A stretch of 64,000 bases of DNA from Eledone cirrhosa (Eukaryota): NCBI GenBank assembly GCA_964016885.1, contig OZ024742.1, forward strand, positions 34,844,001 through 34,908,000, read 5' to 3'. This document shows positions 3,520-38,831 of this stretch, in pieces. The position numbers and the translations under genes were made by a program. Position 1 is the first letter of the stretch. Each line of letters opens with the position of its first letter. The notes under the pieces were generated by a model. That model made no database searches. It was not told the DNA's origin and saw nothing but the letters and a program-made list of their open reading frames with translations.

Positions 3520-3855
3520 AGATCAAAAGATGGTTAAATGAGTTCCATGTATTTTATTATGCGCATTTCAAAAACAAATATCATCATACAATAACATTTG
3601 TGTTTTCATCAGATAAAATAGGAAGACATGATATGAAGGTTAAAAAAACACTTGTGGATAGTGCAGTTTTAAATCAACATATCATATATGTTGATTTAAA
3701 ACTGCACTATCCACAAGTGTTTTTAACCTTCATATCATGTCTTCCTATTTTATCTGATGAAAACACAAATGTTATTGTATGATGATATTTGTTTTTGAAA
3801 TGCGCATAATAAAATACATGGAACTCATTTAACCATCTTTTGATCTTATATATTA
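3511..3855. repeat. Near-perfect palindrome with ~170-bp arms centred near 3683
   Basis: The ORF track gives the same peptide on both strands (3435 + and 3707 -). The same terminus recurs unpaired at 7782-7882. Confidence 0.92.
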
Positions 3856-7756: not shown

Positions 7757-7791
<35 letters not shown>

Positions 7792-7880
7792 AGATCAAAA
7801 GATGGTTAAAGGAGTTCCATGTATTTTATTATGCGCATTTCAAAAACAAACATCATCGTGCAATAATATTTGTGTTTTCA

Positions 7881-8693: not shown

Positions 8694-9218
8694 CATATAT
8701 ACACATAAGCACAAGTCATATTCTCTCTATTCTTTATACATACATACATACATACAAGCATACATATATACATGCGAGCATACATACATACATACATACA
8801 TATATTATATTAAAGCAGAACTATATTTTATATAGGGGTATCATTCTCTCATTGGAATTCAGACAAACAGCATATATGTGGAATCACAGCAATTAGAGAA
8901 ACCATAAGAAAAATAAAAAGACATATCATGCGTAATATTTGTCCCTCGTTTTCATATTTATCAGAAATTTAGCATCATTTTCTCATCATTTTCAATGCCG
9001 TTTACAACCTCATCTTTTCAAAATTTCTTATCAATCCTGTTTTAAAACAAGCGAAAGCAGCACCGATAATTATAGACATAAACGTGAGTCCAGAATATAT
9101 AAGATTATTGGAGCAAAAGGATGAGAGAAACATGTTATTAAATATTGTTGTCCGGGTTGATATTCTGGGAAATGTTCGCATTGTTAACATATGCCAATCA
9201 CAACTATTCCACATCGAT

Positions 9219-9418
9219 NNNNNNNNNNNNNNNNNNNNNNNNNNNNNNNNNNNNNNNNNNNNNNNNNNNNNNNNNNNNNNNNNNNNNNNNNNNNNNNNNN
9301 NNNNNNNNNNNNNNNNNNNNNNNNNNNNNNNNNNNNNNNNNNNNNNNNNNNNNNNNNNNNNNNNNNNNNNNNNNNNNNNNNNNNNNNNNNNNNNNNNNNN
9401 NNNNNNNNNNNNNNNNNN
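9219..9418. other. Assembly (scaffolding) gap
   Basis: 200 consecutive N. Confidence 0.99.
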
Positions 9419-11062
9419 AATCATGAGGTTCTGGGTTTGTCCCACTGTGTTGTATCTTGGACAAGTTAACCATAGTCTCAAGTTAACCTAAGCCTTGTAA
9501 GTGAAATTGGGTAGATGGAAACTTTTTAGAAGCCCATTGGATGAACAGTACCAGTCATGCCATGCTTAATCTATCTGAGAATTATGTTACGGGTACACAT
9601 GCCTGAGGAATACTCAACCAGTTACACATTAATTTAGTGAGTCAGCTATTCCATTGACTGAACAACTGGAATACTCATTGTTCAAACCTAAAATAAAAAT
9701 AGTCATATGAATTCATTTTATAGAACCTAAAATATAATTTCACTCTTATATTTTTATTTTCTGAGAAAATATGCTTTTTCAAAATACTGTAGTAATTTGC
9801 ATGATTACTTTAAATAAATTATTGTTCTCATCAGTAAATTTTCCAGTGTATATTGCCATATTTGTGGGTGTAGAATATTTTTACTTTTTCTGTCTTGGAC
9901 TAAAATGAACAAATTTCAGATAGATTTCGATAGCCTATGACCTTCTCAGTTAAAGTATGTACCCATTTTGCAAAATTTCTGCAAATTTGTGTGTAAATAT
10001 GTATATCATAATCACTTATTTTCCCTGCTTGCATTAATTAGGCAGGTTGTCACATTATGAGGTCAGATAGGACAGGTGATCACGTCTTGTTCGTATAATC
10101 TGTTGTTGACTTCGTTTTCTGCAACTAGATGCCCTTCCTAATGCCAACCACATTACAGCATGTACTGAGCTTCTTTTGTGGCACTACCACTACAACCTTA
10201 CTGAGTGTACTAGGTTTTTTTTTGTGTGGCACCAGCACTACCACTTTACATGGTAGACTGGGTTCTTTTTGTTATGGCACCACCACTACCACCTCAAAGA
10301 ATTGATGGGGGCTTTTTTGTTAAGGCACTAGCACTACCCCCTTAAAGGGTGATCTTATGTTATAGTAAATAACACTTGCCCACGATGGTATGCAGTGTCA
10401 TCAAACACAGAACTTCATAGCTACAATGCAACTTTATAACCGTTTGGCCATGCTGTGTGGATGTAACAAGTAATAATATAATGGTACATATATGTGTGTG
10501 TGTTAGGTTGATTTTGTTGGAAATTCCAGCTGAATAGTAATATCTAATTTTAAAAGAAATAAACAAAATTGTATTTATATATGAATCCTAGAAAAGTGTA
10601 TTAAAAGAAGAAGAAATGGAACAGAATTAAATAAACTGAATGAAAATAAAATCATCATCATCATTACCGTTTAATGTCCATTTTCCATGCTAGCATGGGT
10701 TAAATGAGTTGTCCCATTTGAGGCAAGTCAGATTAGGTAGCAGTGCCTTGCTCATACAGAACTGGCAGACATTTAATGGGCATCTAGCCATAGAAATCAT
10801 GCCAAAATATGGTGAGACATGGTTCTCCAACCTGTTTAGTTTTGGACTGTAACTACTTGGTCCAACCCATACCAGCATAGAAAGTGGACATAAAATTATG
10901 AAGATGATATATATATATATTTAAGTTTGGTGGTTCACCACTGGATAGAACTGGTCATTCCATATAGTTAACTGTGATGTAATAGTAGGAAAAGCACTCA
11001 ACATCATTTTAATTAAACTAATATATATATATGTTGTTTAATTTTTTCTTCATATATTGCAG

Positions 11063-11206
11063 ATATATAATCAAGTGATTGATAAACCTTATAAAGAAGA
11101 ACTGAGCCAACAAATCAAAAGGCTCAATGCAGTCCATTCCTCCCCCTTAATATGTGGCGACCTTGACCTGCAGTTTCTAAGCAAAGCCACTGACAACCTA
11201 AAACAT
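11063..11206 (+). CDS. FANCF: FANCF-like gene, first visible coding exon (phase 0-0): IYNQVIDKPYKEELSQQIKRLNAVHSSPLICGDLDLQFLSKATDNLKH
   Basis: Pyrimidine tract plus TTGCAG acceptor and CAT|GTTAGT donor; 144 nt open. Position and pattern resemble the FANCF region just after the N-terminal W-x-x-Y helix (from recall). Confidence 0.75.
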
Positions 11207-12446
11207 GTTAGTATATTTTACTGTTTTTTTTTATTTTTTAGTTCAATGTCTGCCCTAATTGAGCAAACTTTAAAGGTTTGAATCTTCCACCTTTTTGTAT
11301 GTCTATGACTACATTGTCTAATATGTCTTTGCTTTTGAAAAAGAGTAGGGCTTGATTTCAGAAAGTTGTGACTGCTATTTCTAACAGATTCATTGATCAC
11401 ATTGAAGCTCCTTCATTGTCTTGAAGACAACGACAGCTTAATATATTTGATTCTTGTGGTTTAACTCCAGGTCAACCCTGACTAAGCAGACTTATGATCA
11501 ATGAAAATTTTGTCATGACCTTCCTGTCTTTTTATATAGGCTGACTGAACACACTTGCATTTTGTCAAAAAATTGTTTTGCCATTCTTTCCTCTTATCTT
11601 TTATTTCTCATTCTATCTTCTGTTGAAGGATTAATATCCTAAATGTAAAGACTCTGAATACGTGTAGATTATGATGTCCATGATAAATAACAGTCATTAA
11701 AACAATCGATTAACTACTATTACATTCTTCTTATTAATTTGTTTGTAGCTGCTTATTTTAAAATGTCCACATTTAGATATTTCTAACAATGACACAGAAC
11801 TACAAATTCTGGGGAGGAGAGAGAAAAAGAGAGTATTTAACTCATTTAATACCAACCTACTTGAAACTACATCAGGTTCTATGATACAAAACTATGCTAA
11901 CCTGCAAAAATAAATGTATGTAACATAGTTTAATAAAATTGATAAACATGAACATAAGTTATCATTTGATACTAAACTGTTTGAAACTGCCCCTGTTTCT
12001 ATAATACAAAACTGTGTTTTAAAATGTTTATATTTATATAGAAATCTATCATAAATTTATAAAATAACCTTTAAGTTATGTTCCAAACACCAGCTTAACC
12101 CTTTAGTATTTAAACCAGCTGTATCCAGCCAGAATTCTCTCACCCCTTTCTGTTCAAACTGGCTGTAACTGGCCACTCATACTTATGTTAAGGTATTGTT
12201 CTCTAAATAAATAATATCAAAATTTCATAGCTTCGATATTATGTGGGATAAGTATGTGAAATAAAGTGTTTACCATGAAAATACAATAGTAAATATAGGG
12301 TAATGTAAATGTTAATAATGGGAAAGATATTAAATTGCTCCCAATTCATGATTATTTCAAAATGATTTGAAAATCATAAAATCCATCTATGATTGGAAAT
12401 ATTGTAACAAAAGGGTTTAATAAGATCTTTCATGTTTACCTTTCAG

Positions 12447-12533
12447 TTGTTACTCTGTAATGGTCATCTTTCAGATGAATTATTTGAGGAGCTCATTCAA
12501 ACTTCACTAGGAGACAGGGAATTTATCATCAAA
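12447..12533 (+). CDS. FANCF: FANCF-like exon (phase 0-0): LLLCNGHLSDELFEELIQTSLGDREFIIK
   Basis: TTTCAG acceptor and AAA|GTAAGG donor; 87 nt. LLLCNGHL resembles human FANCF RLLENRAL. Confidence 0.78.
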
Positions 12534-12570
12534 GTAAGGATTTTTCAGAATGTAATATTGTTGTCTAGTT

Positions 12571-12718
12571 CAGTGTTCACCAACCTTTTGGACCTCACGG
12601 ACCACTAAATTCATAATTTTAACTCCTGCAGACCACTAATATGAATTTTTTTAAAAAGATAAATACATTAAAATGTTTCTGCAGACCACCAAAATTTCTC
12701 GTAGTCCGCGGACCACTG
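12571..12718. mobile_element. hAT (Charlie-like) MITE
   Basis: Ends CAGTG...CACTG; 8-bp TSD GTCTAGTT on both sides. Confidence 0.8.
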
Positions 12719-13367
12719 GTCTAGTTAATCCAACAATAAATGGGCAGAATTGTTAGAGTGTAGGATAAAATACCTTGCAGTATTTATTCCTCTACTCTGT
12801 TCTCTAACTTCAAATTCCATTGAAATCAATTTTTGCCTTTCATCCTTTCAGGCTTTATTAAATAAAGTATCGATCCTAGATAGTGGATTGGCTGACACAA
12901 TGTTAATTTTTTTGTCCTAGGGGAAGGGGAATTGAGTTAAAACCCCTGAGTATTACTGCTAGTTATTGTATTAACACACAGAACTCTTTTAGTATTTTAA
13001 CTCAGTAGGACAAAAATCAAATTCAATACCAGTGGAGTTTGTGTCAAACCATAAAACAAGGCAACTTAACCTTGAAATATTTAATTTAGTTCACTGACAA
13101 ATCCACCAATGTATGGCATTTGTATTCTGCTGCTTCCAGTTATTGAACTGTGACCAAATTAGTGGCCTGGTTTCATGAATTACAGTTCATTATACCAACT
13201 GTACAGTACTTGGCTGGTACATGATAAAACTGCTACCTTTATAACATCATGCATGACATCTATGAAGTCTTTGTGTTGCAACCTCATAGGAGGCTGGCTA
13301 AACCTACAAAGTGTAAGCCATAATTGTTTCTCTGGCACAAAGCCAGCAATTACCCAGTGTATTACTG

Positions 13368-13552
13368 GGTGGATTGGCAGTATCGGTAGAGAGTCGGACG
13401 CCATGCTTTGCAGCATAGAGTTACGGCCCTTTATGATCTGAGTTCAAATCTCACCGAGGTCAACTTTGCCTTTCATCCTTACGGGGTCGATAAAATAAAG
13501 TACCAGTAATACACTGGGATAATTGCTGGCCTTGTGCCAAAAGTAGAAACAA
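13368..13552 (+). mobile_element. tRNA-derived SINE, family A
   Basis: A-box-like TGGCAGTATCGG, B-box GAGTTCAAATC, central CTTTGCCTTTCATCCTTACGGGGTCGATAAA (resembles the MetaSINE-type domain, from recall); 15-bp TSD AAGTGTAAGCCATAA. Confidence 0.88.
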
Positions 13553-14209
13553 GTGTAAGCCATAACTTGAATGGTATTTACTTAACATTATAAAGGACAG
13601 TATGCACCCCAAGATATTTTGTTTGGTGCTTATTTAATAATCTTGAAAAGATGAAAAGCAAAGTTGATCTGGCTGGGGATTGAATTCAGATTATAAAATG
13701 TCCAAATACCACAAAATATTTTGCCAGTGTCAAGGGCATGACAGCCTCTATAGCATTGGTGATCTCCATGATAAACACCTTGTACGCTCTGTAACATGGT
13801 TGTTGGTAGGAAAAGCATACATCTGTAGAAAACTTGCCAAAATTATGGGTCTGGAGGACTCTTCATCTGTGTAAAAGACATGAAAACCTCCCTAGTGCTG
13901 GTGCAGTGATAAAATGCACCTGGTGCACTTACTAGAATGCAGATCCCAGGCCTGTTTGAGAGGTCAGTAGGTCCTATTAAATACTGACTTAGTCTGTTAC
14001 AACCCATCCAATTCTTGCTAGCAGGGAAAGTAGACATTAAATAATTTTTTACCAGTTCTAAAACTCACTCCTGTTTTAAAATTACAAACCTCTCTAACCC
14101 ATACAAGCATGGAAAACACTTAAAATAGTGGAGATGTTGATGATACACATACTAGAAATACATAGTCTAAACATTTTTTTCTTTATTTTTTTTCTGTGTC
14201 TTTTTACAG

Positions 14210-14406
14210 CAATGTTCCCAGCTCTGCAGTCACTATGCTTCCTTGCAAATGGTTTCCTGACTAGAAAGGGACATTACAAACTGCAACTATGGCAAATGGC
14301 AACCCAGCAGAACAGAGCCACATTTATCGATAGTTACTACTGTTAAAGCTGATATAATCTGGCAGAGACTTATCAGCCAAATCTCTATTGTTTCTGATGA
14401 AGACAG
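14210..14406 (+). CDS. FANCF: FANCF-like exon (phase 0-2) with an in-frame TGA at 14258-14260: QCSQLCSHYASLQMVS*LERDITNCNYGKWQPSRTEPHLSIVTTVKADIIWQRLISQISIVSDED(R)
   Basis: Long T-rich tract plus TACAG acceptor and AG|GTTTGT donor; phases match both neighbouring exons. TVKADIIWQRL resembles human KTQAELLLERL. Confidence 0.7.
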
Positions 14407-15225
14407 GTTTGTCATCAATTTACTAATCTTGCTCCTTCCTTTATATCAGATAAGTAGACCATTTATTTATTTAGTAGCATAGCTGTGATGGATGCCCCAT
14501 CAATTTTTATGATGAGTATTCAGTTGTTCAATTATTTCTGTTTTCAAATTTCTTATAAATTAACAATTGTCATCTATTTTGTGAAAAATAAAAGGAAGTA
14601 AATTGACCTCCACCGATTTCAACATTAGGTGTTCCAATGGACCAGCCTGCTTGTTAAATTAACATGTAAGTGACTGAGTATTTTACAGAGACGTGAGCTG
14701 AATCAACATGACAAGGCTAGACCATAAGATTACAAGTACAATCCATCTGATAAACTTCCACACAGTTTTTGTTTACCAATTTCTCTCAGAAGGCTTGAGC
14801 CGACCCCAGAACTGGTGAAAGTCATTTGCCCAAGATGACATGCTGTAAAATCAAAGCTTGACTCCCTTCACTATGGAAGAAAACATAGTCACAAATGAAT
14901 TAACAAAAGTGTCTCTACATGTGCCTGCTATAAATAGCTGCTAAATACTCCTCAAATATCATGTCCTCTGTGATATTAGATAATTTAATAAATACATATA
15001 ATAAATACATATTATGGGATGGTCATGGCTGGAATGTCTTTTATCATAGGTCTGCTCAACTGGGGCTAATCACCAAAAACCTACTCGGTAATGGTCATAG
15101 TCTAATTTTTCTTTTTTATATATATTTCACAAAACTTTAAAACCTTTAAGAAGAGATTATATTCTCTGAGCACCTCTCCATAATGAAATGCTGGCAGAGA
15201 AATTTCAAATATATTTGTTAATGAT

Positions 15226-15440
15226 GGCAGCAGATTGGCAGAATCAATAGAGTGTCGAACAACATGCTTCGCAGCATAGAGTTATGGCCCTTTCGATTCT
15301 GAGTTTAAATCCCGCCAAGGTTAACTTTGCCTTTCATCCTTATGGGGTCGATAAAATAAAGCACCAGTAATCTACTGGGGTCAATTCAATCAACTTTTCC
15401 CTTCCCCAAAATTGCTGGCCTTGTGCCTAAATCTGAAATC
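15226..15440 (+). mobile_element. tRNA-derived SINE, family A (older copies at ~12742-12870 +, ~18523-18670 -, ~20575-20690 -, ~28726-28875 +)
   Basis: Shared B-box and TTTGCCTTTCATCCT core. Confidence 0.8.
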
Positions 15441-15865
15441 ATTATAAGATAACATTGTGAAGTTAGACAAAAAAAATAATATTTAAATGAAACAAAAAAG
15501 GAAAAGGAAAGAACAAAAATAAAATAGAGAATGAAGGAAAGGAAGAGGGGGAGAGAGGGACAAAATCTACACCCCAGTCTGAGTGGTGATTCAGCTGTGC
15601 ACTGCGAACAGAATAGCAAAGTCGTGGCCATGGAGGGTAGCCAATGAGACCCACTGTGACAGCCACTCAGCCACAAAGAGCTGCTTCCTCAGGTAGGCTG
15701 CTGTCTTTCCAATTTTGCAGAAGAAATCAGCAGTGCAGGGATGAAGGACACCAAGGGTCTTGACGGCAACTGGTATGAAAAGGAAGTGGTCAGGCAAGCC
15801 CCAGTATTTCTTTTGTCTAGAATTAAACAAGAGCAAAAGCTAATAAAATGTTAAAGCATTTTATA

Positions 15866-16462
15866 TCTATATATATAAAACTGAGGATGTCTGTCTGTGT
15901 GTGTGTGAGTTTGAATCCCTAAAATTCGAGAAGCACCCAACCTACTGTTTTCAAACTTTACACATGTAATACTTATGTTTCAGGGAGTGTTCTGAGCAAA
16001 AAAAATTTCAAATTTTCAATGTCCTAGGGACCGCATTAGGCGATTTAGCGATCTCTCTCTATAATTCTTAGTCTTTCTCTTTTTAGATAGATACATACAT
16101 ATAACGTCGCGCCCTTATAATATCTGTCTGTATGTCTGGCTGTCTGCATTACGTCACTTCCCACAATTCCCTCTGCGTCCAGAACGCGCCCTTATAATAT
16201 CTGTCTGCATTATGTCAGTTACGGCCCACTGCCTCCGGTTATTATGCCACCCTTGCTCAAGACAAATCTCACACTCATTCCCCAAACAGTTGGTAAGTGC
16301 ACATAACTTCTTCCTCATGTTTTAAGCCACAGTGTTTCTTACTTACGTACCACCAGACCCTTACTTCTTTGTCAGCCGTGGTTGTCACAATACTAAGCTT
16401 AGTTAAGGCGGTTATATATTTCACAATGCCTTATCCCATGCAACACCGGGTTCCACTGCTAG
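15866..16462 (+). mobile_element. Non-autonomous Helitron
   Basis: Begins A|TCTATATATATAAAA and ends CCCATGCAACACCGGG...GCTAG|T (subterminal hairpin plus CTAG). Inserted at AT with no TSD; has an internal direct repeat. Confidence 0.7.
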
Positions 16463-16865
16463 TATTATGTAAATATGAAGTTTGAAAGCCATGACAATGT
16501 GAAATGTATGAACAAGAAAACAAGACAAACGAAGATGTTATGTGTTACCTTATTTATTTATCTGTCCTGATATTTTGAGATAAGATCTCTTCTTCGAAGG
16601 TATATAACAAGGGACATGCATGACTTAGCATGTTTATTGATTCCGGACCTGTCCCTTGATGTTTCACTCTGAAGAAGAGATTTTATCTCGAAATATCAGG
16701 ACAGATAAATAAATAAGGTCTAACCCATATAGCATGGAAGATTGACATTAAACGATGACGATGATGATGATGATGAAGGTGACCCATAGCATCTTGTTTC
16801 GTCCTATTTTCTTATTCATCCATCTCACATTGTCGTGGCCTTCAAATGTCATATTTATATACCAT
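16463..16865. repeat. Imperfect inverted repeat with a hammerhead-like motif in each arm; the right arm is interrupted by a SINE-B tail at ~16719-16776
   Basis: CCTTATTTATTTATCTGTCCTGATATT pairs with AATATCAGGACAGATAAATAAATAAGG; the outer arms also pair. Confidence 0.8.
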
Positions 16866-16931
16866 ACACAATGCTTCAAGCAAACTACAACTTCCTCCTA
16901 TTTTATATATTATTTTATTTCTTTCAAAAAG

Positions 16932-16989
16932 GTTAAACCAGTTGGTGACAAGAACAATTTCTAATTTACCTACTTCTAAACATGGCTGG
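16932..16989 (+). CDS. FANCF: FANCF-like small exon (phase 2-0): (R)LNQLVTRTISNLPTSKHGW
   Basis: T-rich tract plus AAAAG acceptor and TGG|GTAAGT donor; 58 nt, exactly bridging the phase-2 donor at 14406 to the phase-0 acceptor at 17744. Confidence 0.7.
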
Positions 16990-17139
16990 GTAAGTTAATC
17001 TTTATATATACGCACACACATATATATATGTATACACACACACACATGACTTGACTTTACTCACTATATGTTTCAGCATGTAGTGTTTGTGTTTCAAATT
17101 GTTGTGTATCTTTCTGATTGTTGCATGAATATATATATG

Positions 17140-17708
17140 TGGTTTATTTAGTGGTTAGGGTGATAGGGTTGCAATTGTAATATCATGAGATCTATTCCTG
17201 GCTGGGCATTGTGCCCTTGAGCAAGACATTATGTTCCACCTAAATCCCTAGCTCACACTGTAAAGTGGTGGTGATGTCGAAATGATAAAAAGCACCCAGT
17301 CCATACTGTAAAGTGGTTGTGTAGGTGACACATAAAAAGCGCCCAGCCCACACTGTTAAGTGGTTGTTTTGGTGTCACAACAAAATGTGCCCAGCCCACA
17401 CTGTAAAGTGGTCATGTAGGTGACATTACAAAAAGCGCCCAGCCCACACTGTAAAGTGGTCATGTAGGTAACATAATACAAAGTGCCTAGCCCACATTGT
17501 AAAGTGGTTGTGTAGGTGTCTCGACAAAAAGTACCCAGTGCATACTGTAAATGTGGTTGGCGTTAGGAAGGGCATCCAGCTGTAGAAATCTTACCAGAAA
17601 CAGTTCTGTATGAGCAAGGCATGGTCACCTGACTTAACTTGCCTCAAATGGGACAACTTGTTTCACCCATGCTAGCATGGAAAGTGGATGTTAAATGATG
17701 ATGATGAT
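17140..17708 (+). mobile_element. SINE family B with internal ~48-bp tandem repeats and a (GAT)n tail (relatives at ~10100-10460 -, 10652-10908, ~13730-14045 +, 20946-21290 -, ~29020-29400 -, ~36643-37040 -)
   Basis: tRNA-like head, 6-7 diverged copies of CACACTGTAAAGTGGTTG..., and the 3' end CCCATGCTAGCATGGAAAGTGGATGTTAAATGATGATG. Confidence 0.75.
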
Positions 17709-17743
17709 ATATATATATATAAATGTATGTATTTATCTTGCAG

Positions 17744-17871
17744 GAAATACTTCTTTATCTTTTAACAAAGAAAGATGTCAGCAGTGACATTCCCAAAGAT
17801 TGCTATTCCAAAATGTATCAATGTCTTGAAGAATTTGTTCAAAGTAACATCACAGCATCAAAACCTCCAAG
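17744..17871 (+). CDS. FANCF: FANCF-like exon (phase 0-2): EILLYLLTKKDVSSDIPKDCYSKMYQCLEEFVQSNITASKPP(S)
   Basis: TTGCAG acceptor and AAG|GTTAGT donor; 128 nt open. Confidence 0.75.
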
Positions 17872-18750
17872 GTTAGTTATTTAAGAATCTTTTAACCCTT
17901 TCATGACTGCATTTCTAATGAAAAACACTCTTTTTTATTAATTAATTAAGAATTTTAAGGGATTTACTAAAATTATAAATTATTTCATTAGTAATGTTAC
18001 GTTCTTAATTCTAGGTTCTTATATAAATTATGTCAGAAGATTTTAATTTAAATTGGTAATCTTTAAAATGGGTGGCTTTATTTCATAGAACCAGTGCTGG
18101 TTTTGGCTGGGTTGGTAACTAAAGGTTTAAACCATCCTTCCTTCTTATTTTTTCTCATCTCATGAACTCAATTTAAACTCTTCTTCTCTTAGTATTAAGT
18201 GCAAACCAACATTCAAGCCTGTATGTGATCCCTTAATAAGCTCGAAATAACAGTGAAATCGCCCTCAAATCATACTTGCCATCTTGAAAGTGGAAGGACA
18301 CTGAATAATATAGTTCCTGAAATTGCACCTTACTGTCTGAAAAGGATAAAGACACATTATATAATGTGTCTCTGGGTGTACAATCCCTGTAAACAATACA
18401 GAATGGTCACAGTTGGAATACTTTTGATCATAGGTCTGTTTCTCTACTGCACTCCGGCTAAACAACACTTCTTTTGTACTTAAACACAATAACAGTGTAA
18501 TCAATGTCTGGTTCTATAATATTGATTTCTATTTTAGACACAAAGTTAGCAAATTTGGATGAGGGGCAAAGTTGATTAAATCAATCCCAGTAATCTTTAT
18601 TTTATTGACCCCAGAAGGGTGAAAGGCAAAGTTGACCTCAGCAGGATTTGAACTCAGAATGTAGAAAGGGTTTTGTTTAATATTAAAAAATCTTTATATA
18701 ACTTTATATAAAAGTGTGTGAATGTGAATGTATGTATGCATGTGTGTGTG

Positions 18751-19910
18751 TATTGGGTTGGCCAAAAAGTCTGTTCAGTTTTTGCCAATACTAAACTTCA
18801 AGCATTTTAATAGTTGCTAACTTCACTTTTTTTCCTTCCGAGTATGCACTCATTAGATACTTGATACTTTAAAGTAGTTCATAGCGAAACTCCTATGATA
18901 TTGGTTTCATTTTGCGTGTTTATCTTGACCTTCAAAATGGAGAAGCAAAATGAACATTATCAATACATCATACTTTTTTTATTTCAAAAAATGTAAGAAA
19001 GCAACAGAAACTTTCAGAAACATATGCACTATGTATGGAGAGGATGCTGTTACAGAACGTGCATGCTAGAAGTGGTTTTCAAAATTTCGATCAGGAAATT
19101 TTTCAATTCAAGATACACCTTTCTCTGGATGACCAAGTGAAAGAGTTAGTCGACACCAACTCCCGTCTTTCAACCAGAGAGATCAAAGATATTCTCCAGA
19201 TATCCAAATCACGTGTTGAAAACCATCTGCATAAACTTGGTTATGTCAGCAGACTTCATGTTTGGGTTCCCCATAAATTGAATGAAGCCAACCTCACCCA
19301 ACGAATTTCCATCTGTGATTCCTTGCTTAAACATGAAGGAAATGGCAACTGGAGACGAAAAATGGATCATCTATAACAATATTGAGCGAAAATGATCATG
19401 AGTTAATCCCCAAGAACCACCGCAATCAACCTCCAAAGCAGGACCTCATTCAAAGAAGATTATGCTTCTAATTTGGTGAGGTTGGAAGGATGTTGTCTTT
19501 TATGAGCTTCTTTCCCAAACAGCACCATCAATTCGGATGTGTACTGTGAAAAGCTGGATAAATTAAACACAACATCCAGAAGTTGCTAATCAAAAGGGTA
19601 TTGTCTTTCATCAAAACAATGCCAGACTACAAACTTCCTTGCAGACATGGCAGAAGTTACTAGAGCTTGACTGGGAAGTTTTGCCTCACCCTCCATATTC
19701 CCCTAACTTTGCTCCTTCAGATTTCCTCCTCTTTCGGTCACTTCAAAATTCTTTGAATGGACAGACTTTCAATTCTTCAGGAGATGTGAAAATTCATTTG
19801 GAAGGGTTCTTTGCCAGTAAAGACAGGAAATTCTTTGAACAGGGAATAATGGATCTAGCTAGAAGATGACAGAAGGTACTGGAATGAAATGGCAAATATA
19901 TCATTGATTG
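18751..19910 (+). mobile_element. Degenerate mariner (Tc1/mariner) DNA transposon; transposase pseudogene from ATG 18937
   Basis: 5' end TA-TTGGGTTGGCCAAAAAGT resembles mariner TIRs. Frameshifted motifs include YGEDAVTER, WVPHKL, TGDEKWI and LPHPPYSPNFAPSDF. Multiple stops; no 3' TIR seen. Confidence 0.92.
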
Positions 19911-20237
19911 AATAATTTGCTTTGGGTTTAAAACTGCTCATTAAGTATTTTAGTAATCAGTGCTCAATACATATGATTTATGTATGAGTTACTGCTGTAC
20001 ACATATACCTGTAGTGTATATGATATACTTACAGGTAGCAGAACAGAGTAAAAGAAATAAAATGAGAGAAATACCACCCCCACTACCAACCCCCACTTAA
20101 AAAAGTAGGCCTTCCTGACCCCTTCCCTGTTCTGGTACATTTGTTAGTATATGTATAATGTATACAAAATATAAGAAATGCATTTGTTCCATAAGGATAG
20201 ACAGGATTATCTAGAATTTTTATTGTTTCTTTTATAG

Positions 20238-20396
20238 CCTCATATGGTCCGTGCCAAAAAATTTGCTTATACAGGTGATAGTCATCTCTTTTCCTGTGTT
20301 TTCCACCTGTTTACGACACCTTATTAACTGGGCAGAACAATATTCACCTCTCTATCACCAACGACAACACACATACAATTCATTCTACACTTGGCA
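20238..20396 (+). CDS. FANCF: FANCF-like exon (phase 2-2): LIWSVPKNLLIQVIVISFPVFSTCLRHLINWAEQYSPLYHQRQHTYNSFYTW(Q)
   Basis: TTTATAG acceptor and CA|GTAAGT donor; 159 nt. VPKNLL...HLINWA resembles human LPAGLL...LLTDWG. Confidence 0.8.
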
Positions 20397-21089
20397 GTAA
20401 GTTCTTTTATTTATTCATTTAATGTCCTGTATTTGGTGGACAATAGCATCATTAGTTACTGGTTTGAGAATTATAGCAAGCACCAGATTAAGTCTACTAC
20501 CCAACAATTCCGAACAAGTATCTCAAGGTATATTTTCCGAAAACTAACAATTTAGCTAATCCACTGCTTGGGCTGGTATTTTATTTTAACTGACCTGGAA
20601 GGATGAAAGGCAAAGTTGACCACAGCTGGATTTGAACTCAGGCAAAGACTGCATTTTGTTGTATGCTCTAACAACTCTAACAACTCGCTGCACATAAAAA
20701 AATGGAACAAACTCGTATACGGGAGTCAAACCACTTATCTACCATATACAACTGAAGAATCCTCTCAGCCCTTTTTTTTTTACATGATATTGGCTAAAAA
20801 TCTATAGGTATATTCTGTAGTACATACAATACAACATTGAAACAAAAAACTATTCACGCACCAATAAACTACTCCCAGTTTAGAATGTTTGTGCATGTAC
20901 TAGCAGCAGCAGCATTGTCCTTAAATATGTGGCTCCTACTTGATCATTATCATCATCATCATCATCACTGTTTAACATCCATTTTTCCGTGCCAGCATGG
21001 GTTAGACGAGTTTTCCCTTTGTGAGACAAGCCAGATCAGATGACGGTGTCTTGTTTTCTATGGCTGGATGCCCTTCCTTAAACCAGCCA

Positions 21090-24000
21090 CATTTACACAT
21101 TTACAGTGTGTATTGGATGCTTTTTATCGTGGCTCCAAAACGACCACTTTACAGTGTGGGTTAGGTACTTTTTGTCGTGACACCTACACAACCACTTTAC
21201 AGCATGGGTTAGGTACTTTTTGTTGTGGCACCTACACAACCACTTTACAGTGTGGATTGGGCACTTTTTGTCATGTCACCAACAGGAGCACTTTACAGTG
21301 TGGACTGCGCGCTTTTTGTCATGTCACCAAAACAACCACTTTACAGTGTGGACTGTGTGCTTTTTGTCATGTCACCAAAACAACCACTTTACAGTGTGGA
21401 CTGCATGCTTTTTGTCATGTCACCAAAACAACCACTTTACAGTGTGGACTGTGTGCTTTTTGTCATGTCACCAAAACAACCACTTTACAGTGTGGACTGC
21501 ATGCTTTTTGTCATGTCACCAAAACAACCACTTTACAGTGTGGACTGTGTGCTTTTTGTCATGTCACCAAAACAACCACTTTACAGTGTGGACTGCATGC
21601 TTTTTGTCATGTCACCAAAACAACCACTTTACAGTGTGGACTGCATGCTTTTTGTCATGTCACCAAAACAACCACTTTACAGTGTGGACTGCATGCTTTT
21701 TGTCATGTCACCAAAACAACCACTTTACAGTGTGGACTGTGTGCTTTTTGTCATGTCACCAAAACAACCACTTTACAGTGTGGACTGCATGCTTTTTGTC
21801 ATGTCACCAAAACAACCACTTTACAGTGTGGACTGCATGCTTTTTGTCATGTCACCAAAACAACCACTTTACAGTGTGGACTGTGTGCTTTTTGTCATGT
21901 CACCAAAACAACCACTTTACAGTGTGGACTGCATGCTTTTTGTCATGTCACCAAAACAACCACTTTACAGTGTGGACTGCATGCTTTTTGTCATGTCACC
22001 AAAACAACCACTTTACAGTGTGGACTGTGTGCTTTTTGTCATGTCACCAAAACAACCACTTTACAGTGTGGACTGCATGCTTTTTGTCATGTCACCAAAA
22101 CAACCACTTTACAGTGTGGACTGTGTGCTTTTTGTCATGTCACCAAAACAACCACTTTACAGTGTGGACTGCATGCTTTTTGTCATGTCACCAAAACAAC
22201 CACTTTACAGTGTGGACTGCATGCTTTTTGTCATGTCACCAAAACAACCACTTTACAGTGTGGACTGTGTGCTTTTTGTCATGTCACCAAAACAACCACT
22301 TTACAGTGTGGACTGCATGCTTTTTGTCATGTCACCAAAACAACCACTTTACAGTGTGGACTGCATGCTTTTTGTCATGTCACCAAAACAACCACTTTAC
22401 AGTGTGGACTGCATGCTTTTTGTCATGTCACCAAAACAACCACTTTACAGTGTGGACTGTGTGCTTTTTGTCATGTCACCAAAACAACCACTTTACAGTG
22501 TGGACTGCATGCTTTTTGTCATGTCACCAAAACAACCACTTTACAGTGTGGACTGCATGCTTTTTGTCATGTCACCAAAACAACCACTTTACAGTGTGGA
22601 CTGCATGCTTTTTGTCATGTCACCAAAACAACCACTTTACAGTGTGGACTGTGTGCTTTTTGTCATGTCACCAAAACAACCACTTTACAGTGTGGACTGC
22701 ATGCTTTTTGTCATGTCACCAAAACAACCACTTTACAGTGTGGACTGCATGCTTTTTGTCATGTCACCAAAACAACCACTTTACAGTGTGGACTGTGTGC
22801 TTTTTGTCATGTCACCAAAACAACCACTTTACAGTGTGGACTGCGTGCTTTTTGTCATGTCACCAAAACAACCACTTTACAGTGTGGACTGTGTGCTTTT
22901 TGTCATGTCACCAAAACAACCACTTTACAGTGTGGACTGCGTGCTTTTTGTCATGTCACCAAAACAACCACTTTACAGTGTGGACTGTGTGCTTTTTGTC
23001 ATGTCACCAAAACAACCACTTTACAGTGTGGACTGCATGCTTTTTGTCATGTCACCAAAACAACCACTTTACAGTGTGGACTGTGTGCTTTTTGTCATGT
23101 CACCAAAACAACCACTTTACAGTGTGGACTGCATGCTTTTTGTCATGTCACCAAAACAACCACTTTACAGTGTGGACTGCGTGCTTTTTGTCATGTCACC
23201 AAAACAACCACTTTACAGTGTGGACTGCGTGCTTTTTGTCATGTCACCAAAACAACCACTTTACAGTGTGGACTGTGTGCTTTTTGTCATGTCACCAAAA
23301 CAACCACTTTACAGTGTGGACTGCATGCTTTTTGTCATGTCACCAAAACAACCACTTTACAGTGTGGACTGTGTGCTTTTTGTCATGTCACCAAAACAAC
23401 CACTTTACAGTGTGGACTGCATGCTTTTTGTCATGTCACCAAAACAACCACTTTACAGTGTGGACTGCATGCTTTTTGTCATGTCACCAAAACAACCACT
23501 TTACAGTGTGGACTGCATGCTTTTTGTCATGTCACCAAAACAACCACTTTACAGTGTGGACTGTGTGCTTTTTGTCATGTCACCAAAACAACCACTTTAC
23601 AGTGTGGACTGTGTGCTTTTTGTCATGTCACCAAAACAACCACTTTACAGTGTGGACTGCGTGCTTTTTGTCATGTCACCAAAACAACCACTTTACAGTG
23701 TGGACTGTGTGCTTTTTGTCATGTCACCAAAACAACCACTTTACAGTGTGGACTGCATGCTTTTTGTCATGTCACCAAAACAACCACTTTACAGTGTGGA
23801 CTGCATGCTTTTTGTCATGTCACCAAAACAACCACTTTACAGTGTGGACTGCGTGCTTTTTGTCATGTCACCAAAACAACCACTTTACAGTGTGGACTGC
23901 ATGCTTTTTGTCATGTCACCAAAACAACCACATTACAGTGTGGACTGCATGCTTTTTGTCATGTCACCAAAACAACCACTTTACAGTGTGGACTGCATGC

Positions 24001-26682
24001 TTTTTGTCATGTCACCAAAACAACCACTTTACAGTGTGGACTGCGTGCTTTTTGTCATGTCACCAAAACAACCACTTTACAGTGTGGACTGCATGCTTTT
24101 TGTCATGTCACCAAAACAACCACTTTACAGTGTGGACTGCGTGCTTTTTGTCATGTCACCAAAACAACCACTTTACAGTGTGGACTGCATGCTTTTTGTC
24201 ATGTCACCAAAACAACCACTTTACAGTGTGGACTGCGTGCTTTTTGTCATGTCACCAAAACAACCACTTTACAGTGTGGACTGCATGCTTTTTGTCATGT
24301 CACCAAAACAACCACTTTACAGTGTGGACTGCGTGCTTTTTGTCATGTCACCAAAACAACCACTTTACAGTGTGGACTGCATGCTTTTTGTCATGTCACC
24401 AAAACAACCACTTTACAGTGTGGACTGCATGCTTTTTGTCATGTCACCAAAACAACCACTTTACAGTGTGGACTGCATGCTTTTTGTCATGTCACCAAAA
24501 CAACCACTTTACAGTGTGGACTGCGTGCTTTTTGTCATGTCACCAAAACAACCACTTTACAGTGTGGACTGCATGCTTTTTGTCATGTCACCAAAACAAC
24601 CACTTTACAGTGTGGACTGCGTGCTTTTTGTCATGTCACCAAAACAACCACTTTACAGTGTGGACTGCATGCTTTTTGTCATGTCACCAAAACAACCACT
24701 TTACAGTGTGGACTGCGTGCTTTTTGTCATGTCACCAAAACAACCACTTTACAGTGTGGACTGCATGCTTTTTGTCATGTCACCAAAACAACCACTTTAC
24801 AGTGTGGACTGTGTGCTTTTTGTCATGTCACCAAAACAACCACTTTACAGTGTGGACTGCGTGCTTTTTGTCATGTCACCAAAACAACCACTTTACAGTG
24901 TGGACTGTGTGCTTTTTGTCATGTCACCAAAACAACCACTTTACAGTGTGGACTGTGTGCTTTTTGTCATGTCACCAAAACAACCACTTTACAGTGTGGA
25001 CTGCGTGCTTTTTGTCATGTCACCAAAACAACCACTTTACAGTGTGGACTGCGTGCTTTTTGTCATGTCACCAAAACAACCACTTTACAGTGTGGACTGC
25101 GTGCTTTTTGTCATGTCACCAAAACAACCACTTTACAGTGTGGACTGCGTGCTTTTTGTCATGTCACCAAAACAACCACTTTACAGTGTGGACTGCGTGC
25201 TTTTTGTCATGTCACCAAAACAACCACTTTACAGTGTGGACTGCATGCTTTTTGTCATGTCACCAAAACAACCACTTTACAGTGTGGACTGCGTGCTTTT
25301 TGTCATGTCACCAAAACAACCACTTTACAGTGTGGACTGCATGCTTTTTGTCATGTCACCAAAACAACCACTTTACAGTGTGGACTGCGTGCTTTTTGTC
25401 ATGTCACCAAAACAACCACTTTACAGTGTGGACTGCATGCTTTTTGTCATGTCACCAAAACAACCACTTTACAGTGTGGACTGCGTGCTTTTTGTCATGT
25501 CACCAAAACAACCACTTTACAGTGTGGACTGCATGCTTTTTGTCATGTCACCAAAACAACCACTTTACAGTGTGGACTGCGTGCTTTTTGTCATGTCACC
25601 AAAACAACCACTTTACAGTGTGGACTGCGTGCTTTTTGTCATGTCACCAAAACAACCACTTTACAGTGTGGACTGCGTGCTTTTTGTCATGTCACCAAAA
25701 CAACCACTTTACAGTGTGGACTGCGTGCTTTTTGTCATGTCACCAAAACAACCACTTTACAGTGTGGACTGCGTGCTTTTTGTCATGTCACCAAAACAAC
25801 CACTTTACAGTGTGGACTGCATGCTTTTTGTCATGTCACCAAAACAACCACTTTACAGTGTGGACTGCGTGCTTTTTGTCATGTCACCAAAACAACCACT
25901 TTACAGTGTGGACTGCATGCTTTTTGTCATGTCACCAAAACAACCACTTTACAGTGTGGACTGCGTGCTTTTTGTCATGTCACCAAAACAACCACTTTAC
26001 AGTGTGGACTGCATGCTTTTTGTCATGTCACCAAAACAACCACTTTACAGTGTGGACTGCGTGCTTTTTGTCATGTCACCAAAACAACCACTTTACAGTG
26101 TGGACTGCATGCTTTTTGTCATGTCACCAAAACAACCACTTTACAGTGTGGACTGCGTGCTTTTTGTCATGTCACCAAAACAACCACTTTACAGTGTGGA
26201 CTGCATGCTTTTTGTCATGTCACCAAAACAACCACTTTACAGTGTGGACTGCATGCTTTTTGTCATGTCACCAAAACAACCACTTTACAGTGTGGACTGC
26301 ATGCTTTTTGTCATGTCACCAAAACAACCACTTTACAGTGTGGACTGTGTGCTTTTTGTCATGTCACCAAAACAACCACTTTACAGTGTGGACTGCGTGC
26401 TTTTTGTCATGTCACCAAAACAACCACTTTACAGTGTGGACTGCATGCTTTTTGTCATGTCACCAAAACAACCACTTTACAGTGTGGACTGCATGCTTTT
26501 TGTCATGTCACCAAAACAACCACTTTACAGTGTGGACTGCGTGCTTTTTGTCATGTCACCAAAACAACCACTTTACAGTGTGGACTGCATGCTTTTTGTC
26601 ATGTCACCAAAACAACCACTTTACAGTGTGGACTGCGTGCTTTTTGTCATGTCACCAAAACAACCACTTTACAGTGTGGACT
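21090..26682 (+). repeat. 48-bp minisatellite (ACCACTTTACAGTGTGGACTG[CA/TG/CG]TGCTTTTTGTCATGTCACCAAAACA), about 112 homogeneous units plus about 5 diverged 5' units, in the last FANCF intron
   Basis: Exact 48-bp period from 21335 to 26663 with no indels. Diverged relatives of the unit occur inside SINE-like elements elsewhere in the window. Confidence 0.99.
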
Positions 26683-26966
26683 TGAAGCTGGGGTGGGAGA
26701 CGTGTATGGGGATTGGAGAGGTAAATATAGAGTGGGGCACATGTGGTGAAGGATGAGGTGTTAGGACGTGGGATATGGATGGAGGGTGAAGGGAAGATAG
26801 AGAAAAGTGGTGCATACTAGATGCATGCTTCAACCCATGCATTTTAGAAAATCAGCATCTGATCACAGCTGAAATATCCTATTCCCCCAAGAGAAAACCT
26901 AGTCTTTGAGATGCAATTTGGCAGCTTAAAAGGTATTTTTTATCTATTTTTTATTTTTATTTTCAG

Positions 26967-27159
26967 GCTCCAAGAAACAGATAGCATCAATGAAATCTCA
27001 TCATTTGAAGAACTTTTTAAACATTTTGTAATTCTCAGTAACTGTGGAGACCAACCTAAGAAAGCAGTACTTGCTATATTGAATAGTTTACAGGCCCAAA
27101 CAAGCTGTAGTATATGGCATGACCTTCTCACCAAAATATCAACAACAGATCAAACTTGA
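26967..27159 (+). CDS. FANCF: FANCF-like terminal coding exon: LQETDSINEISSFEELFKHFVILSNCGDQPKKAVLAILNSLQAQTSCSIWHDLLTKISTTDQT*
   Basis: TTTTCAG acceptor, phase 2, ends in TGA. FEELFKHF...KKAVLAIL...AQ...SIWHDLL parallels the recalled human C-terminus WEELHNRF...KDKVLTAL...AQ...SIWTDLL. Confidence 0.82.
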
Positions 27160-27309
27160 AGCTATGTAAATTAACCTGTAATAGATTTACTTCTTTTTAA
27201 GAACACCGTATGTGTTGACTAAGGAAAAGTGTTATTTCTACATGTTCACCCTATTTCTAAGTGTGTGTATAGACAAGGAAAATAGGAGTATTTTATTGCA
27301 AATGTTTAA

Positions 27310-27517
27310 CTCTTTAGCATTTAAACTGGCCATATCTAGTCAGAATTCTCTCACCTTTTTCTGTTCAAACCAGCTGTAACCGTTCACTCATACTGATGTT
27401 AAAGTATTGTTCTCAAAATAAATAATATCAAAATCTCATAGCTTCGATATTATGTAAGATAAAGCCTTTACCACAAAAATACAATAATATATATATAGTA
27501 ATGTAAATGTTAAAGGG
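27310..27517. mobile_element. piggyBac-like TTAA MITE (related copy at ~12099-12416; similar ends at ~17896-18125)
   Basis: TTAA|CTCTTTAGCATT...AATGTTAAAGGG|TTAA; the internal sequence is shared with 12099-12320. Confidence 0.6.
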
Positions 27518-29433
27518 TTAAAATATCAATCTCCAACTGATTAAAAAAAACATGAATCAAGCCATGAAAGCTTGATTGCATTGGTGGTTCCAACATCTGT
27601 AATGATAGGACATTGTGGTAAAAAAATTCTCATGTTCAGGCCTTTAGACAATTTTGAGAACTTCTTTTACACCTTTTATTACCATATCTAAACTATAATA
27701 AAGAAAGGAGTGCGGGACTGCATCCAGAATATATTTTTTTATCCTGTTTGTAAAATAAGTTGGATTACTTTGAATAAATAATGAATGAATATTACATAAT
27801 TTATCTACTAAATTTCGTTATTCTTGATTAAATATAAATAATTTGGTGGCATATTTAAAGATTCACTTCTTTAAAATTTTCAAATGTCAACACTTCCGGT
27901 TAGCGATCGCTTAAATAAACATTCATATATTTCCGTCACTAATTTTCTCGTAATGCAGTTTATATATAATATTGTCTTTTTTTATGTATCATGGATTACG
28001 TTACTAATTACATAAGAGAGTGTAACGCAGTCTTCATTCAATTTCTGTGTATATTGTCAATTACAATCTTATTTGATGTATCATATCTACATGCATATAT
28101 ACTTGCGTATAATATCAATATGCACAGTGCATATGCTAGCAGAAAACCCCTCGAAGGGTGGTTTTTCTGCTAATTTCTATAAATTTCAAATCATTTTGAA
28201 AATAATGAAGAATCTGGAGAGATTTAGTAGCACAACTAACTTTCTCATTATTTACATTTTGTTTGGAATATAACTTTACAAAGGTTCTTACATAGAATTA
28301 CCATTGAAAGTTTATAAATAAATATAATCACTTTATAACTGGTATGGTAGAACCAGTGGTAGTTTCAGATGGCTTGGTATCAAAGGGTTTTTAAAAATTC
28401 AGAGTTGATTTATTCAATGACAGTGTGTTAAAATTGTTATGTTCACTTTTTGTTTATTAATTTCTAACACAATTACACTGCCTTTGGTATTGTTTCAGTG
28501 ATCATGTCACAGAGGTCCTCATAGGTTACTTTAATTTTATTATTAAGTAGACTATTCATAAATTAAAAGACTCAACACAAGAAAAGTACAATGGCTAACT
28601 TTATTTTTAGGAATTTTCCAGTACTTTTGTTTCAAATATATATCCACTTAAATTCAAAACAGAAATACTTCTGTAAAACATCCAAAAATAAAGAATATAT
28701 ATGTGTGTGTATATATTCCATCATAGGTGGTGAATTAGCAGAGTCGTTAGAACATTGGATGCTTTATGGTATTCGTTCCGGTTCTCTGCTCTCTGAGTTC
28801 ATATCATGCTGAGGTCAACTTTGCCTTTCATCCTTTCGAGGTTGATAAAAAATGTACCAGTCTTGTACTGGGTTTGATTCTTCCTCTCTCTGGAAGAAAT
28901 TTGTTGTACTCAGGCCTGGGGAAAGATGGGCTACGCCAGGCTTAAAATGCCCAAGAAATGACCTGTCTCAATACAGCGCCCCTATGACTTTATCAGGAGT
29001 TACAGGACCATACCATATATACCATCAACATCATCATTTAATGTCTGCTTTATCTGCTACCAAGGGCTGGATGGATCATCAACAAACCGGGTTGAGACTC
29101 AAGTGGAGCTACTAACCTTTCAGATAAGCCAGGACCATGCATCTTGTTTACATAAGTTCCCATGTTCTACCAAGCGCATTTTATCAGAACACCAGCATTA
29201 GGGAGGTCGTCATGTCTTTTATACAGCTGAAGAGTCCTTCCAACCATTTGTTTGGTTGGATTTTGTGGTTGGATACCCTTCCATCACCAACCACTTTACA
29301 AAGTGTACAGGGTGTATTTATCATGTAGACCAGCCAACACAAGACAGTTTATTGTGTCCTTGACACAACTGGAGAGTCCTTTCGAATCTTTTTAATCATG
29401 GGTTTTACAGCAGGATGCCCTTTATGTCACCAA

Positions 29434-29585
29434 TTACCATGGCCATCCCACTGATTGTGAACCTTTAGTTAGCTTGCCATACAATAAGTTTTTGGGAATG
29501 CAACCCGAGGCCATTTTCCTGATGTGGTTTTGCCAACAAAAATTCCTCTTGCTGAGAATGGTGAACATGCTGCCCATCTTTGCCT
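29434..29585 (-). mobile_element. RTE-clade LINE ORF2 C-terminal fragment
   Basis: CWQNHIRKMASGCIPKNLLYGKLTKGSQSVGWP resembles the RTE motif W.GH..RM...RIPK.LLYGEL..G.R..GRP. Confidence 0.65.
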
Positions 29586-29589
29586 GGAG

Positions 29590-30420
29590 ACTGGTTGTCC
29601 CGGAGATGCTTGGCAAACCGGTCTGTTAGCCAATGACCAGTTTGTCCAATGTAGACTGATACACATAGCGTGCAACAGAGCACATAGACCTGACTGGAGG
29701 AGGTGCGGTGGAAGGATTAGCCATTGAGTCCACAGAGAGTGGTGGTGTTGGTGATGAAGTTGCATGTGTGGCAGCAGGGTCAGGAGCAGAAGTGGGATCC
29801 ATGAGAGGAGTTGGAGGGAGGAAGGGACCTATGGACAAAGAAGTTTCGGAGGTTGTATGTGCACCTAACGGGGGGGGGGGGATGGTGGAAGTGAAGGGGT
29901 CCATCGGAGGTGGCAGAAGAGCTAGAGGACCATCTTCTGGGGGCAGCAAGGTGAAGGGTTTATAGGTAAGGAGGAATGAGAAGTCGGTGGAGTGAAAGCA
30001 GTATGGACCAGGGAGTGGGTAATGACACCAAATGAAGAGTCTAACCATGTAATTATCCTGAGCCTTAAAGTCATGGGTTCAACTGCATAGGCGGTGGAAA
30101 TGGAGAAATTGAAAGAAACAGATGGGGGTGTCATGAAGTGAAAAGTTGAAGGAGTCAAGGAAGCGGGGGGCATGATTGGTATCTGATATGTGGGAGGGGA
30201 GGGCGACTACTAGGGGTGCGAGAATGGAGTAGAGATAGGCGGGGGTAGTTGCAGGCAGAGGCGATGGAGCGGCCAGGAGTATCCGGTTTATGGATTTGGG
30301 GGAAGAAGTAGATGGTGGAGTGTATGAGTGGGGAGGTGAGTTGTACGGTGGAGGATACTTGTTGCTGGTATGGTGAGGTGAGGAGAAAGCAGAAGAGAAG
30401 GCTATGAAGTTGTAGAGCCT
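29590..30420 (-). mobile_element. Third Penelope-like fragment (GIY-YIG region)
   Basis: Minus-strand CTLCVSVYIGQTGHWLTDRFAKHLRD motif with C-rich degenerate coding sequence upstream; boundaries approximate. Confidence 0.7.
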
Positions 30421-30865
30421 CTGTCCTGTGGACGGCGGCGAAATATGCTCAAGAAATTTTGCTCCGTTTTGAGCATTTACGGAAGTTGCACCAATTGGTG
30501 ACTCTATGGTAGGCGTCAAGAATAAACACTTAGAAAGCCATATCTATGAATAACACACTGGCAGCTAAATTATACAGCTTCATATGCAAATGAGATTAAT
30601 CACCTCATTTACACAGATGAAAAAACAATATATTTTTGCCTCTTCTCAAAGTCCGGCAGTTGCAAGAGCGGGAGAGATCGTCCTGACGAGCACAAGTTGA
30701 GTTTGAAATGCTGGGCACTGCTGGCTGGCGTCAGCTGGTAGTGTGAAGGTCATAACTATGGCTTTCTAAATGTTTATTCATAAACATACCGTATTTCTAA
30801 AGAAATAGGAAATTCAAATGCATATTTGTATACAGCTATGTTCAAAGCTAAATTCTAATATATAT

Positions 30866-32593
<1,728 letters not shown>

Positions 32594-32760
32594 TAGTAAT
32601 AATAATAAATGTGAAGACTAAAATCCAAAGAGGGCTCGATAAGGATAAATATATATCAAATATATAAGAACCCTAGAGCAAATAATAATTAAAATAATAG
32701 ATTAAAGTTTAAGCAAAGAATCGCTACTTTCACCCTTAATCGTTAAGGGTGAAAGCAGCG

Positions 32761-32808
<48 letters not shown>

Positions 32809-32955
32809 TTTATACTTATATATGAGTTATATTCAATTATAAATATGAAAAGGTAGTATGAAGTGAGAGAAAAAGCTTAATGTAAATTATCATATGTATT
32901 ACAGAGCCGAGATAGAAAATATAAAACAATCAAATTTTAGCTTAATACATTTAAT

Positions 32956-33000
32956 TGCTGACGATCGTTTCTTCCAGACAACTTTGGTATCATCGGAGCA
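32956..33000 (-). ncRNA. Candidate hammerhead of the antisense Penelope-like element (core CCGATGA)
   Basis: Minus strand reads TGCT-CCGATGA-TA-CCA...TGG-AA-GAAAC-GATC-GTC-AGCA. Confidence 0.5.
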
Positions 33001-33448
33001 TACACAATGTTTAAACAAGTAATTATAATCCTAGTCTTCGGAACGTTCATAAAGATACATTACTATTGACAGTGTCAGTGACATCATATTGAAACGCAAG
33101 AGAGACAAAGGGTATTATGTTATACAGATATCAAAGTATTAGGAGCTGTTGTGATGAGTAAAAATACTGAGCATATTATATAGAAAGTTATTCATTAAGG
33201 TAATTCAGATGCAAAAGACACCAAGCAAAAAGGTGTTACAGAAGATAGATAAAGATATCATAGCATTGAAAATGTAATAGTAAGGGTATATGATGCAAAA
33301 TATTAATAAAGACATGCATGAGGTAAGAGTTAGAAAATGAATATATCAAGCATATTTCATACAGAATGTTAAAGAGTGTTAAAAATGGCATGCATTATGG
33401 TAAAGAAATATGTAATGATAATATGAATAAATGTTGTGTAATGCAAAT

Positions 33449-35534: not shown

Positions 35535-35674
<140 letters not shown>

Positions 35675-35689
35675 TGTGTGTGTGTGTGC

Positions 35690-36573: not shown

Positions 36574-36643
<70 letters not shown>

Positions 36644-37942: not shown

Positions 37943-37990
<48 letters not shown>

Positions 37991-38400: not shown

Positions 38401-38454
<54 letters not shown>

Positions 38455-38772: not shown

Positions 38773-38831
<59 letters not shown>

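Follow-up and report, generated by a model that had tools for sequence, protein, structure and literature searches.

An in-frame UGA in the FANCF gene of the octopod Eledone cirrhosa, probably a young nonsense allele in a stop context known as leaky

In wild Drosophila, nonsense alleles have been reported in about 35 genes per genotype (PMC5888714), and the change of an arginine CGA codon to UGA is given as the most frequent premature stop among human disease alleles (PMC12361112). Basal readthrough of disease stops has been put at 0.01-2% (PMC9436315). For the UGA-CUA context by itself the reported readthrough is 1.5%, and for OPRL1 it is about 31%; of the 23 human genes with UGA-CUAG, only four were described as having a positive coding signature (PMC4132726). 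The core genes of the Fanconi anemia (FA) pathway are reported to tend to be absent from lower eukaryotes (PMC4657327).

Here we describe a single in-frame TGA in the FANCF gene of the octopod Eledone cirrhosa. The window analyzed is a stretch of 64,000 nucleotides (GenBank assembly GCA_964016885.1, contig OZ024742.1, positions 34,844,001 to 34,908,000); its own coordinates are used throughout, and all parts of the gene described lie on the + strand. A first-pass annotation had proposed that full-length FANCF might depend on readthrough or RNA editing at this stop, with a recent nonsense allele or a consensus error as the fallback. The reading that we prefer, at a probability of about 0.6, is that a recent nonsense mutation left the allele null or strongly hypomorphic, and that the stop is not a programmed switch; this figure, like the weights given in words to the other readings, is a judgement and not a computation.

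The FANCF locus and its reading frame

The FANCF-like identity originally proposed for the gene was borne out by protein comparison. A HMMER search with the last coding exon (E7) gave four hits, the best of which was a protein from Argonauta hians that scores 89 bits on the Pfam FANCF profile (PF11107) and led us to the Octopus proteins, so that the orthologs compared were those of O. sinensis, O. bimaculoides, O. vulgaris and Argonauta. Two further hits were repetitive, looked unrelated and were dropped, and another one (90 aa, without a Pfam hit) was left unused because it spans the last exon only. The Eledone protein is 70% identical to O. sinensis FANCF (222/318) and 54% identical to the Argonauta protein (170/317), levels which fit an octopod outside the group formed by the three Octopus species, and on this protein evidence we assign the locus as the FANCF ortholog. 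Single exons were poor queries: five of the six exons tested gave no Pfam hit and E7 scored 19.3 bits, below the cut-off of 24, while word-index searches with single exons found no homologs, a search type that is insensitive since the orthologs surfaced later by HMMER. A PDB search with E7 gave no useful match, and the O. sinensis protein matched a single PDB entry, human FANCF (E 0.025), through its N-terminal 43 residues only.

When O. sinensis FANCF was searched against the whole genome, 11 matches were obtained, six of them exons at this locus and five weak ones (contig C28, E 0.3-3, three stops each) that we judged to be chance; no second FANCF copy was found in this search. The profiles PF11107 and PF11510 (FANCE) gave zero genome hits, which does not imply absence, as PF11107 missed even the known FANCF.

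Seven exons make up the visible gene: E1 (11063-11206, 144 nt, corresponding to ortholog residues 44-91, with an acceptor and without a start codon), E2 (12447-12533, 87 nt coding), E3 (14210-14406, 197 nt coding, with a single DNA match in the genome assembly), E4 (16932-16989, 58 nt coding), E5 (17744-17871, 128 nt coding, with an in-frame deletion of five residues relative to the orthologs), E6 (20238-20396, 159 nt coding) and E7 (26967-27159), which ends in a normal stop. Joined, they give 966 nt or 322 codons with the terminal stop counted, and the splice signals are intact at each of the 13 visible sites (seven AG acceptors of seven, six GT donors of six). This frame contains one internal stop, the TGA at 14258-14260 in E3, which is codon 94 of the joined frame, corresponds to residue 137 of O. 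sinensis FANCF and is surrounded in frame by TCC TGA CTA GAA. The CTAG that follows (14261-14264) comprises a Leu codon and the first base of a Glu codon and equals the known leaky UGA-CUAG context. The seven GT-AG exons, the 322-codon frame and the single UGA of the first-pass annotation were thus all recovered, and its description of the gene as otherwise intact is borne out for residues 44-367; the N-terminal 43 residues were not found in the assembly. The counterpart of E1 (48 residues) is missing from isoform X2 in both O. sinensis and O. bimaculoides, so that skipping of E1 is annotated as an alternative splice of FANCF in both species.

Searches with an ortholog N-terminal query found residues 1-43 neither in the window, nor in the 60 kb upstream (best scores 36/81 and 29/149, as compared to 106/150 and 66/101 for control exons), nor in the genome assembly. 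An assembly gap of 200 N (9219-9418) lies about 1.6 kb before E1, and contigs from the sequencing runs extend about 430-460 nt past 9218. The first FANCF exon or exons therefore probably lie within this gap, a genuine deletion of them being the possible alternative. The sequence directly before the gap (8812-9218, + strand) is enriched in CpG (4.4 per 200 nt vs 1.7), ends in a CCAAT-box-like motif at about 9193 and has a read depth of about 60% of that of the remaining gene; it could possibly be a promoter, a tentative suggestion. Further upstream, the region at 3522-3630 and that at 3690-3850 (about 150 nt each) appear by eye to be mutual reverse complements, one of which recurs at 7790-7880, and 3522-3850 is possibly an assembly fold-back or an inverted repeat.

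Most of the last FANCF intron is filled by a 48-bp tandem array at 21100-26682 (116 copies, 97% matches), whose three + strand frames stay open for 1834-1901 codons as a by-product of the repeat, and a related 48-bp array lies on the opposite strand at 17288-17559. In the E5-E6 intron, at about 18950-19900, there is a degenerate frame with many stops and only a weak Pfam HTH hit (E 0.005), which we take to resemble the remnant of a mariner-type transposase. Positions 32469-64000 form a tandem segmental duplication in units of 9-11.5 kb with 97-99.8% identity (32469-43298 pairs with 53136-64000, and 36846-46047 with 46048-55237), which is either a real recent array or uncollapsed assembly. Elsewhere in the genome assembly, FANCL (L019:853-1707, contig C17) carries its d2, d3 and RING domains on one open exon of about 285 C-terminal codons. 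This is unusual for a gene with many exons in vertebrates, and FANCF shows the reverse, with one coding exon in humans and several in Eledone.

Reality, zygosity and origin of the stop

The TGA was present in all three runs of one sample, and each run gave one unbroken contig over 14016-14700 with zero differences, at depths of 7, 12 and 8. These runs probably come from the assembly's own sample and are as such not independent of it. It is clear from these contigs that the TGA is genuine genomic sequence, and the consensus error offered initially as an alternative is excluded. We place an assembly error together with a selenocysteine codon as the least probable of the readings considered. A lone in-frame UGA is the mark of selenoproteins, which speaks for selenocysteine; the orthologs have no Cys at the column (0/4), no SECIS was among nine weak Rfam hits in 26900-30000, and a pattern scan of 27160-31000 also found none, all of which speaks against it.

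Whether the animal carried the stop on both chromosomes was judged from the same runs. At site 9824 the alternative base stands at full depth in two of the three runs, which shows that the contigs collapse heterozygous sites, and therefore the finding of T in three of three runs favors homozygosity by only about 8:1. The summed depth on E3 (27) equals the summed depth where two alleles are visible (27), so that both haplotypes appear to be covered at E3. The sequenced animal was on these grounds probably homozygous for the stop. The allele is known from this one sample, and two RAD-seq runs of other individuals had no depth on E3. The runs differ at 9824 (G/T) and at 10312 (one extra T), and at no other site seen in the roughly 4.3 kb of single-copy contig, so that heterozygosity around the locus seems to be low.

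At the column of the stop the residue is Arg in O. sinensis, O. vulgaris and O. bimaculoides and Gln in Argonauta, and none of the four orthologs has a stop, Trp or Cys. A recoding switch conserved among related species is therefore not supported, and sense codons in relatives, which the first-pass annotation had named as evidence against recoding, are seen here at the protein level. Directly after the column Leu-Glu-Arg-Asp is invariant in all four orthologs, and the CTAG is simply the start of the conserved Leu-Glu codons (CTA and the G of Glu). The match to the UGA-CUAG context was confirmed, and it is less surprising than it first seemed, since these bases encode residues that do not vary among the orthologs.

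CGA is the only Arg codon that is a single change away from both TGA and a Gln codon, and CGA>TGA is therefore the parsimonious origin of the stop. The comparison was made at the protein level with nearest orthologs about 70% identical, and from it an ancestral CGA, converted by a CpG transition, appears likely. The reading frame contains 5 CpG where 33 are expected, with TpG and CpA in excess, as expected under methyl-CpG decay. The initial fallback of a recent CGA>TGA nonsense allele is supported by the Arg/Arg/Arg/Gln column together with this parsimony, and there is good support for an origin of the stop by recent nonsense mutation at a CpG.

How much of a coincidence the leaky context represents can be estimated from the frame itself. 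There are 154 single-base routes to a stop in the frame; with CpG weights that are assumed, and hence as a range, 1.5-9.8% of the weighted routes produce TGA followed by CTAG, the share of this site being 1.0-9.5%. By chance, CTAG would come after about 0.3% of TGA triplets, and CTA is used for 4 of the 41 Leu codons in the gene. The coincidence is modest yet not nil, and tilts the balance somewhat toward a leaky allele.

Selection on the frame and routes past the stop

Selection was gauged by amino-acid relative rates in the protein alignments. With Argonauta as outgroup, Eledone has 25 private changes and O. sinensis 22 in 315 columns (p=0.77), divided into 10 vs 5 before the stop and 15 vs 17 after it (222 columns), and the comparison with O. 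bimaculoides gives 22 and 16 in 256 columns (p=0.42). The Eledone branch is longer in the tree (0.22, as compared to 0.15-0.16 for Octopus), yet acceleration is not supported by the relative-rate test. Relaxed selection downstream of the stop, which had been named beforehand as a sign against recoding, was thus not seen in the 15 vs 17 changes. All indels relative to the orthologs are in frame, there is no second lesion in the seven exons, and the FANCF frame is open in all four other octopods. A decayed pseudogene was rejected, since the 966 nt hold a single lesion, no splice site among the 13 is damaged and the relative-rate test gives p=0.77. The gene looks to have been selected until very recently, and from the lack of both rate acceleration and a second lesion it follows that either the stop arose not long ago or the allele continues to function; a young dead allele and a still-working one are inseparable on these data. 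If dead, the allele would, from zero further lesions and with assumed indel rates, be younger than about 2-3% neutral divergence.

In the preferred reading, a CpG transition from CGA to TGA recently turned the Arg137 codon of FANCF into a stop at which ribosomes would halt near residue 136 of 365. By the usual rule, a stop well upstream of an exon junction marks a transcript for nonsense-mediated decay (NMD); here the next junction follows at 146 nt and four junctions lie beyond the stop, so that the mRNA is a predicted target of NMD. If a few percent of ribosomes read through incidentally, traces of full-length protein would be made. Some points count against a null allele: the gene looks selected until recently, the stop is apparently homozygous and it sits in the leakiest known context, for which the dead-allele model gives 1.5-9.8%. 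The 285-codon last exon of FANCL, open in the genome assembly, counts against it as well.

The main rival reading is that the allele is a pseudo-pseudogene, in which CGA changed to TGA in front of a pre-existing CTA-G, readthrough supplies working FANCF, the allele is homozygous or fixed and the frame is still selected; we consider this less likely, though with a fair chance. It would be helped by the apparent homozygosity, by the downstream frame without relaxation and by the whole-genome search, which found no other copy of the gene. Of all nonsense alleles, leaky ones should become homozygous most readily. Readthrough of UGA inserts Arg, Trp or Cys, and the position of the stop tolerates Arg or Gln. 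FANCF is required in dividing cells, which counts against this reading, and the absence of relaxation is equally expected of a young dead allele. There is also no stimulatory 3' structure (z 0.57 and 0.17; exon z 0.15), and the transcript is a predicted target of decay. From the literature, UGA-CUAG is reported as the core of mammalian readthrough (PMC4132726; 10.64898/2026.07.14.738498), readthrough reportedly softened the effect of a premature UGACUA stop in a patient, and in Drosophila the Ir75a gene, with a stop of recent origin, is described as yielding a functional protein (PMC5829715, PMC7244557). The strong readthrough in the fly is described as neuronal, however (PMC5829715/PMC7244557), readthrough in the UGA-CUAG context is mostly given as a few percent, and context effects beyond -3 to +4 are said to transfer poorly across genes (10.64898/2026.07.14.738498).

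A second way around the stop would be splicing, with E3 and E4 skipped jointly or a cryptic site in E3 used to give a shorter in-frame protein. The outcomes of exon skipping claimed earlier were reproduced: loss of E3 alone shifts the frame and leads to a stop at codon 88, and loss of E3 and E4 together keeps an open frame of 237 codons, 85 fewer. The 85 residues, called conserved-looking at first sight, do include many invariant columns among the orthologs, and their removal argues against such a product. In-frame cryptic acceptors (14318, 14366), in-frame GC donors (14221, 14245) and several internal intron options are present, and Octopus FANCF is alternatively spliced at E1. The pyrimidine fraction of the cryptic acceptors is 0.39, as compared to 0.61-0.83 at the true sites, the one GT donor close to the TGA, at 14252, would not keep the frame, and E3 is present in all six Octopus protein models. 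Taken together we find a bypass by splicing improbable.

Less probable still is A-to-I editing, by which UGA would become UGI, read as Trp, and the frame would be restored. Coleoids are reported to recode heavily (PMC4384741), stop-restoring editing is described in fungi (PMC4817773), and folding predicts that A14260 is base-paired (p=0.89) within a short hairpin nearby, with a z of -1.73 for a segment that was picked post hoc. The target A has a 5' G, reported as the least favored neighbor for ADAR (PMC11019741), the product Trp occurs in 0/4 orthologs, and no partner strand was found in 9419-28500, where the best duplex (-26.9 kcal/mol) was beaten by 7 of 14 control 41-mers. The editing to Trp that the first-pass annotation had suggested is thus unlikely, given the 5' G, the lack of Trp at the column and the absence of a long duplex.

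Comparison with known systems

No literature on FANCF in octopus was found, the combination of Fanconi anemia and cephalopod returning only unrelated work (subscription journals lay outside the search), and among the matches listed for octopus premature stops, readthrough or pseudogenes none concerned this case by title or start of abstract. The best explanation is a modest one, a FANCF allele that lost its function recently in a single octopod and has yet to decay. It would be of use in annotation, and it raises the question of how far short-lived cephalopods can do without the Fanconi core complex. Should the allele be a pseudo-pseudogene, it would be a rare natural case, outside fly neurons, of a housekeeping repair gene in which readthrough makes a premature stop tolerable. 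The species would then make FANCF by leaky readthrough, the UGA-CUAG signal having arisen within a coding exon by a single step, and readthrough would set an upper limit on how much of this Fanconi core subunit is made.

As a member of the FANCF family (PF11107) the gene resembles its relatives in that the orthologs match nearly the entire profile (Argonauta positions 1-342 of 346), and differs from the human gene, which has one coding exon where that of Eledone has at least eight. The seven-base stop context is identical to that described for programmed UGA-CUAG readthrough in AQP4, OPRL1, OPRK1 and MAPK10 (PMC4132726). Those cases are reported as terminal stops that give C-terminal extensions, with UGA-CUA conserved across vertebrates (PMC4132726), whereas the Eledone stop is internal (residue 137 of 367) and found in one lineage only. 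Membership in the programmed class was accordingly rejected, the stop being internal and not conserved (Arg, Arg, Arg, Gln).

The Ir75a gene of Drosophila sechellia, as described in the sources (PMC5829715, PMC7244557), is closer: it too has a recent internal stop with C at +4, a frame that looks selected and a sense codon in relatives. It differs in that full-length protein is reported as demonstrated in neurons, whereas for Eledone FANCF, which acts in dividing cells, such a protein is a prediction. Natural nonsense alleles and young unitary pseudogenes, as far as they are described (PMC5888714), share with the Eledone allele one stop with an inferred CpG origin, an otherwise clean frame and sense codons in relatives; the Eledone stop differs from them in lying in a conserved single-copy repair gene, in being apparently homozygous and in its leaky context. 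Of these systems, it is the natural nonsense allele that the Eledone allele works most like.
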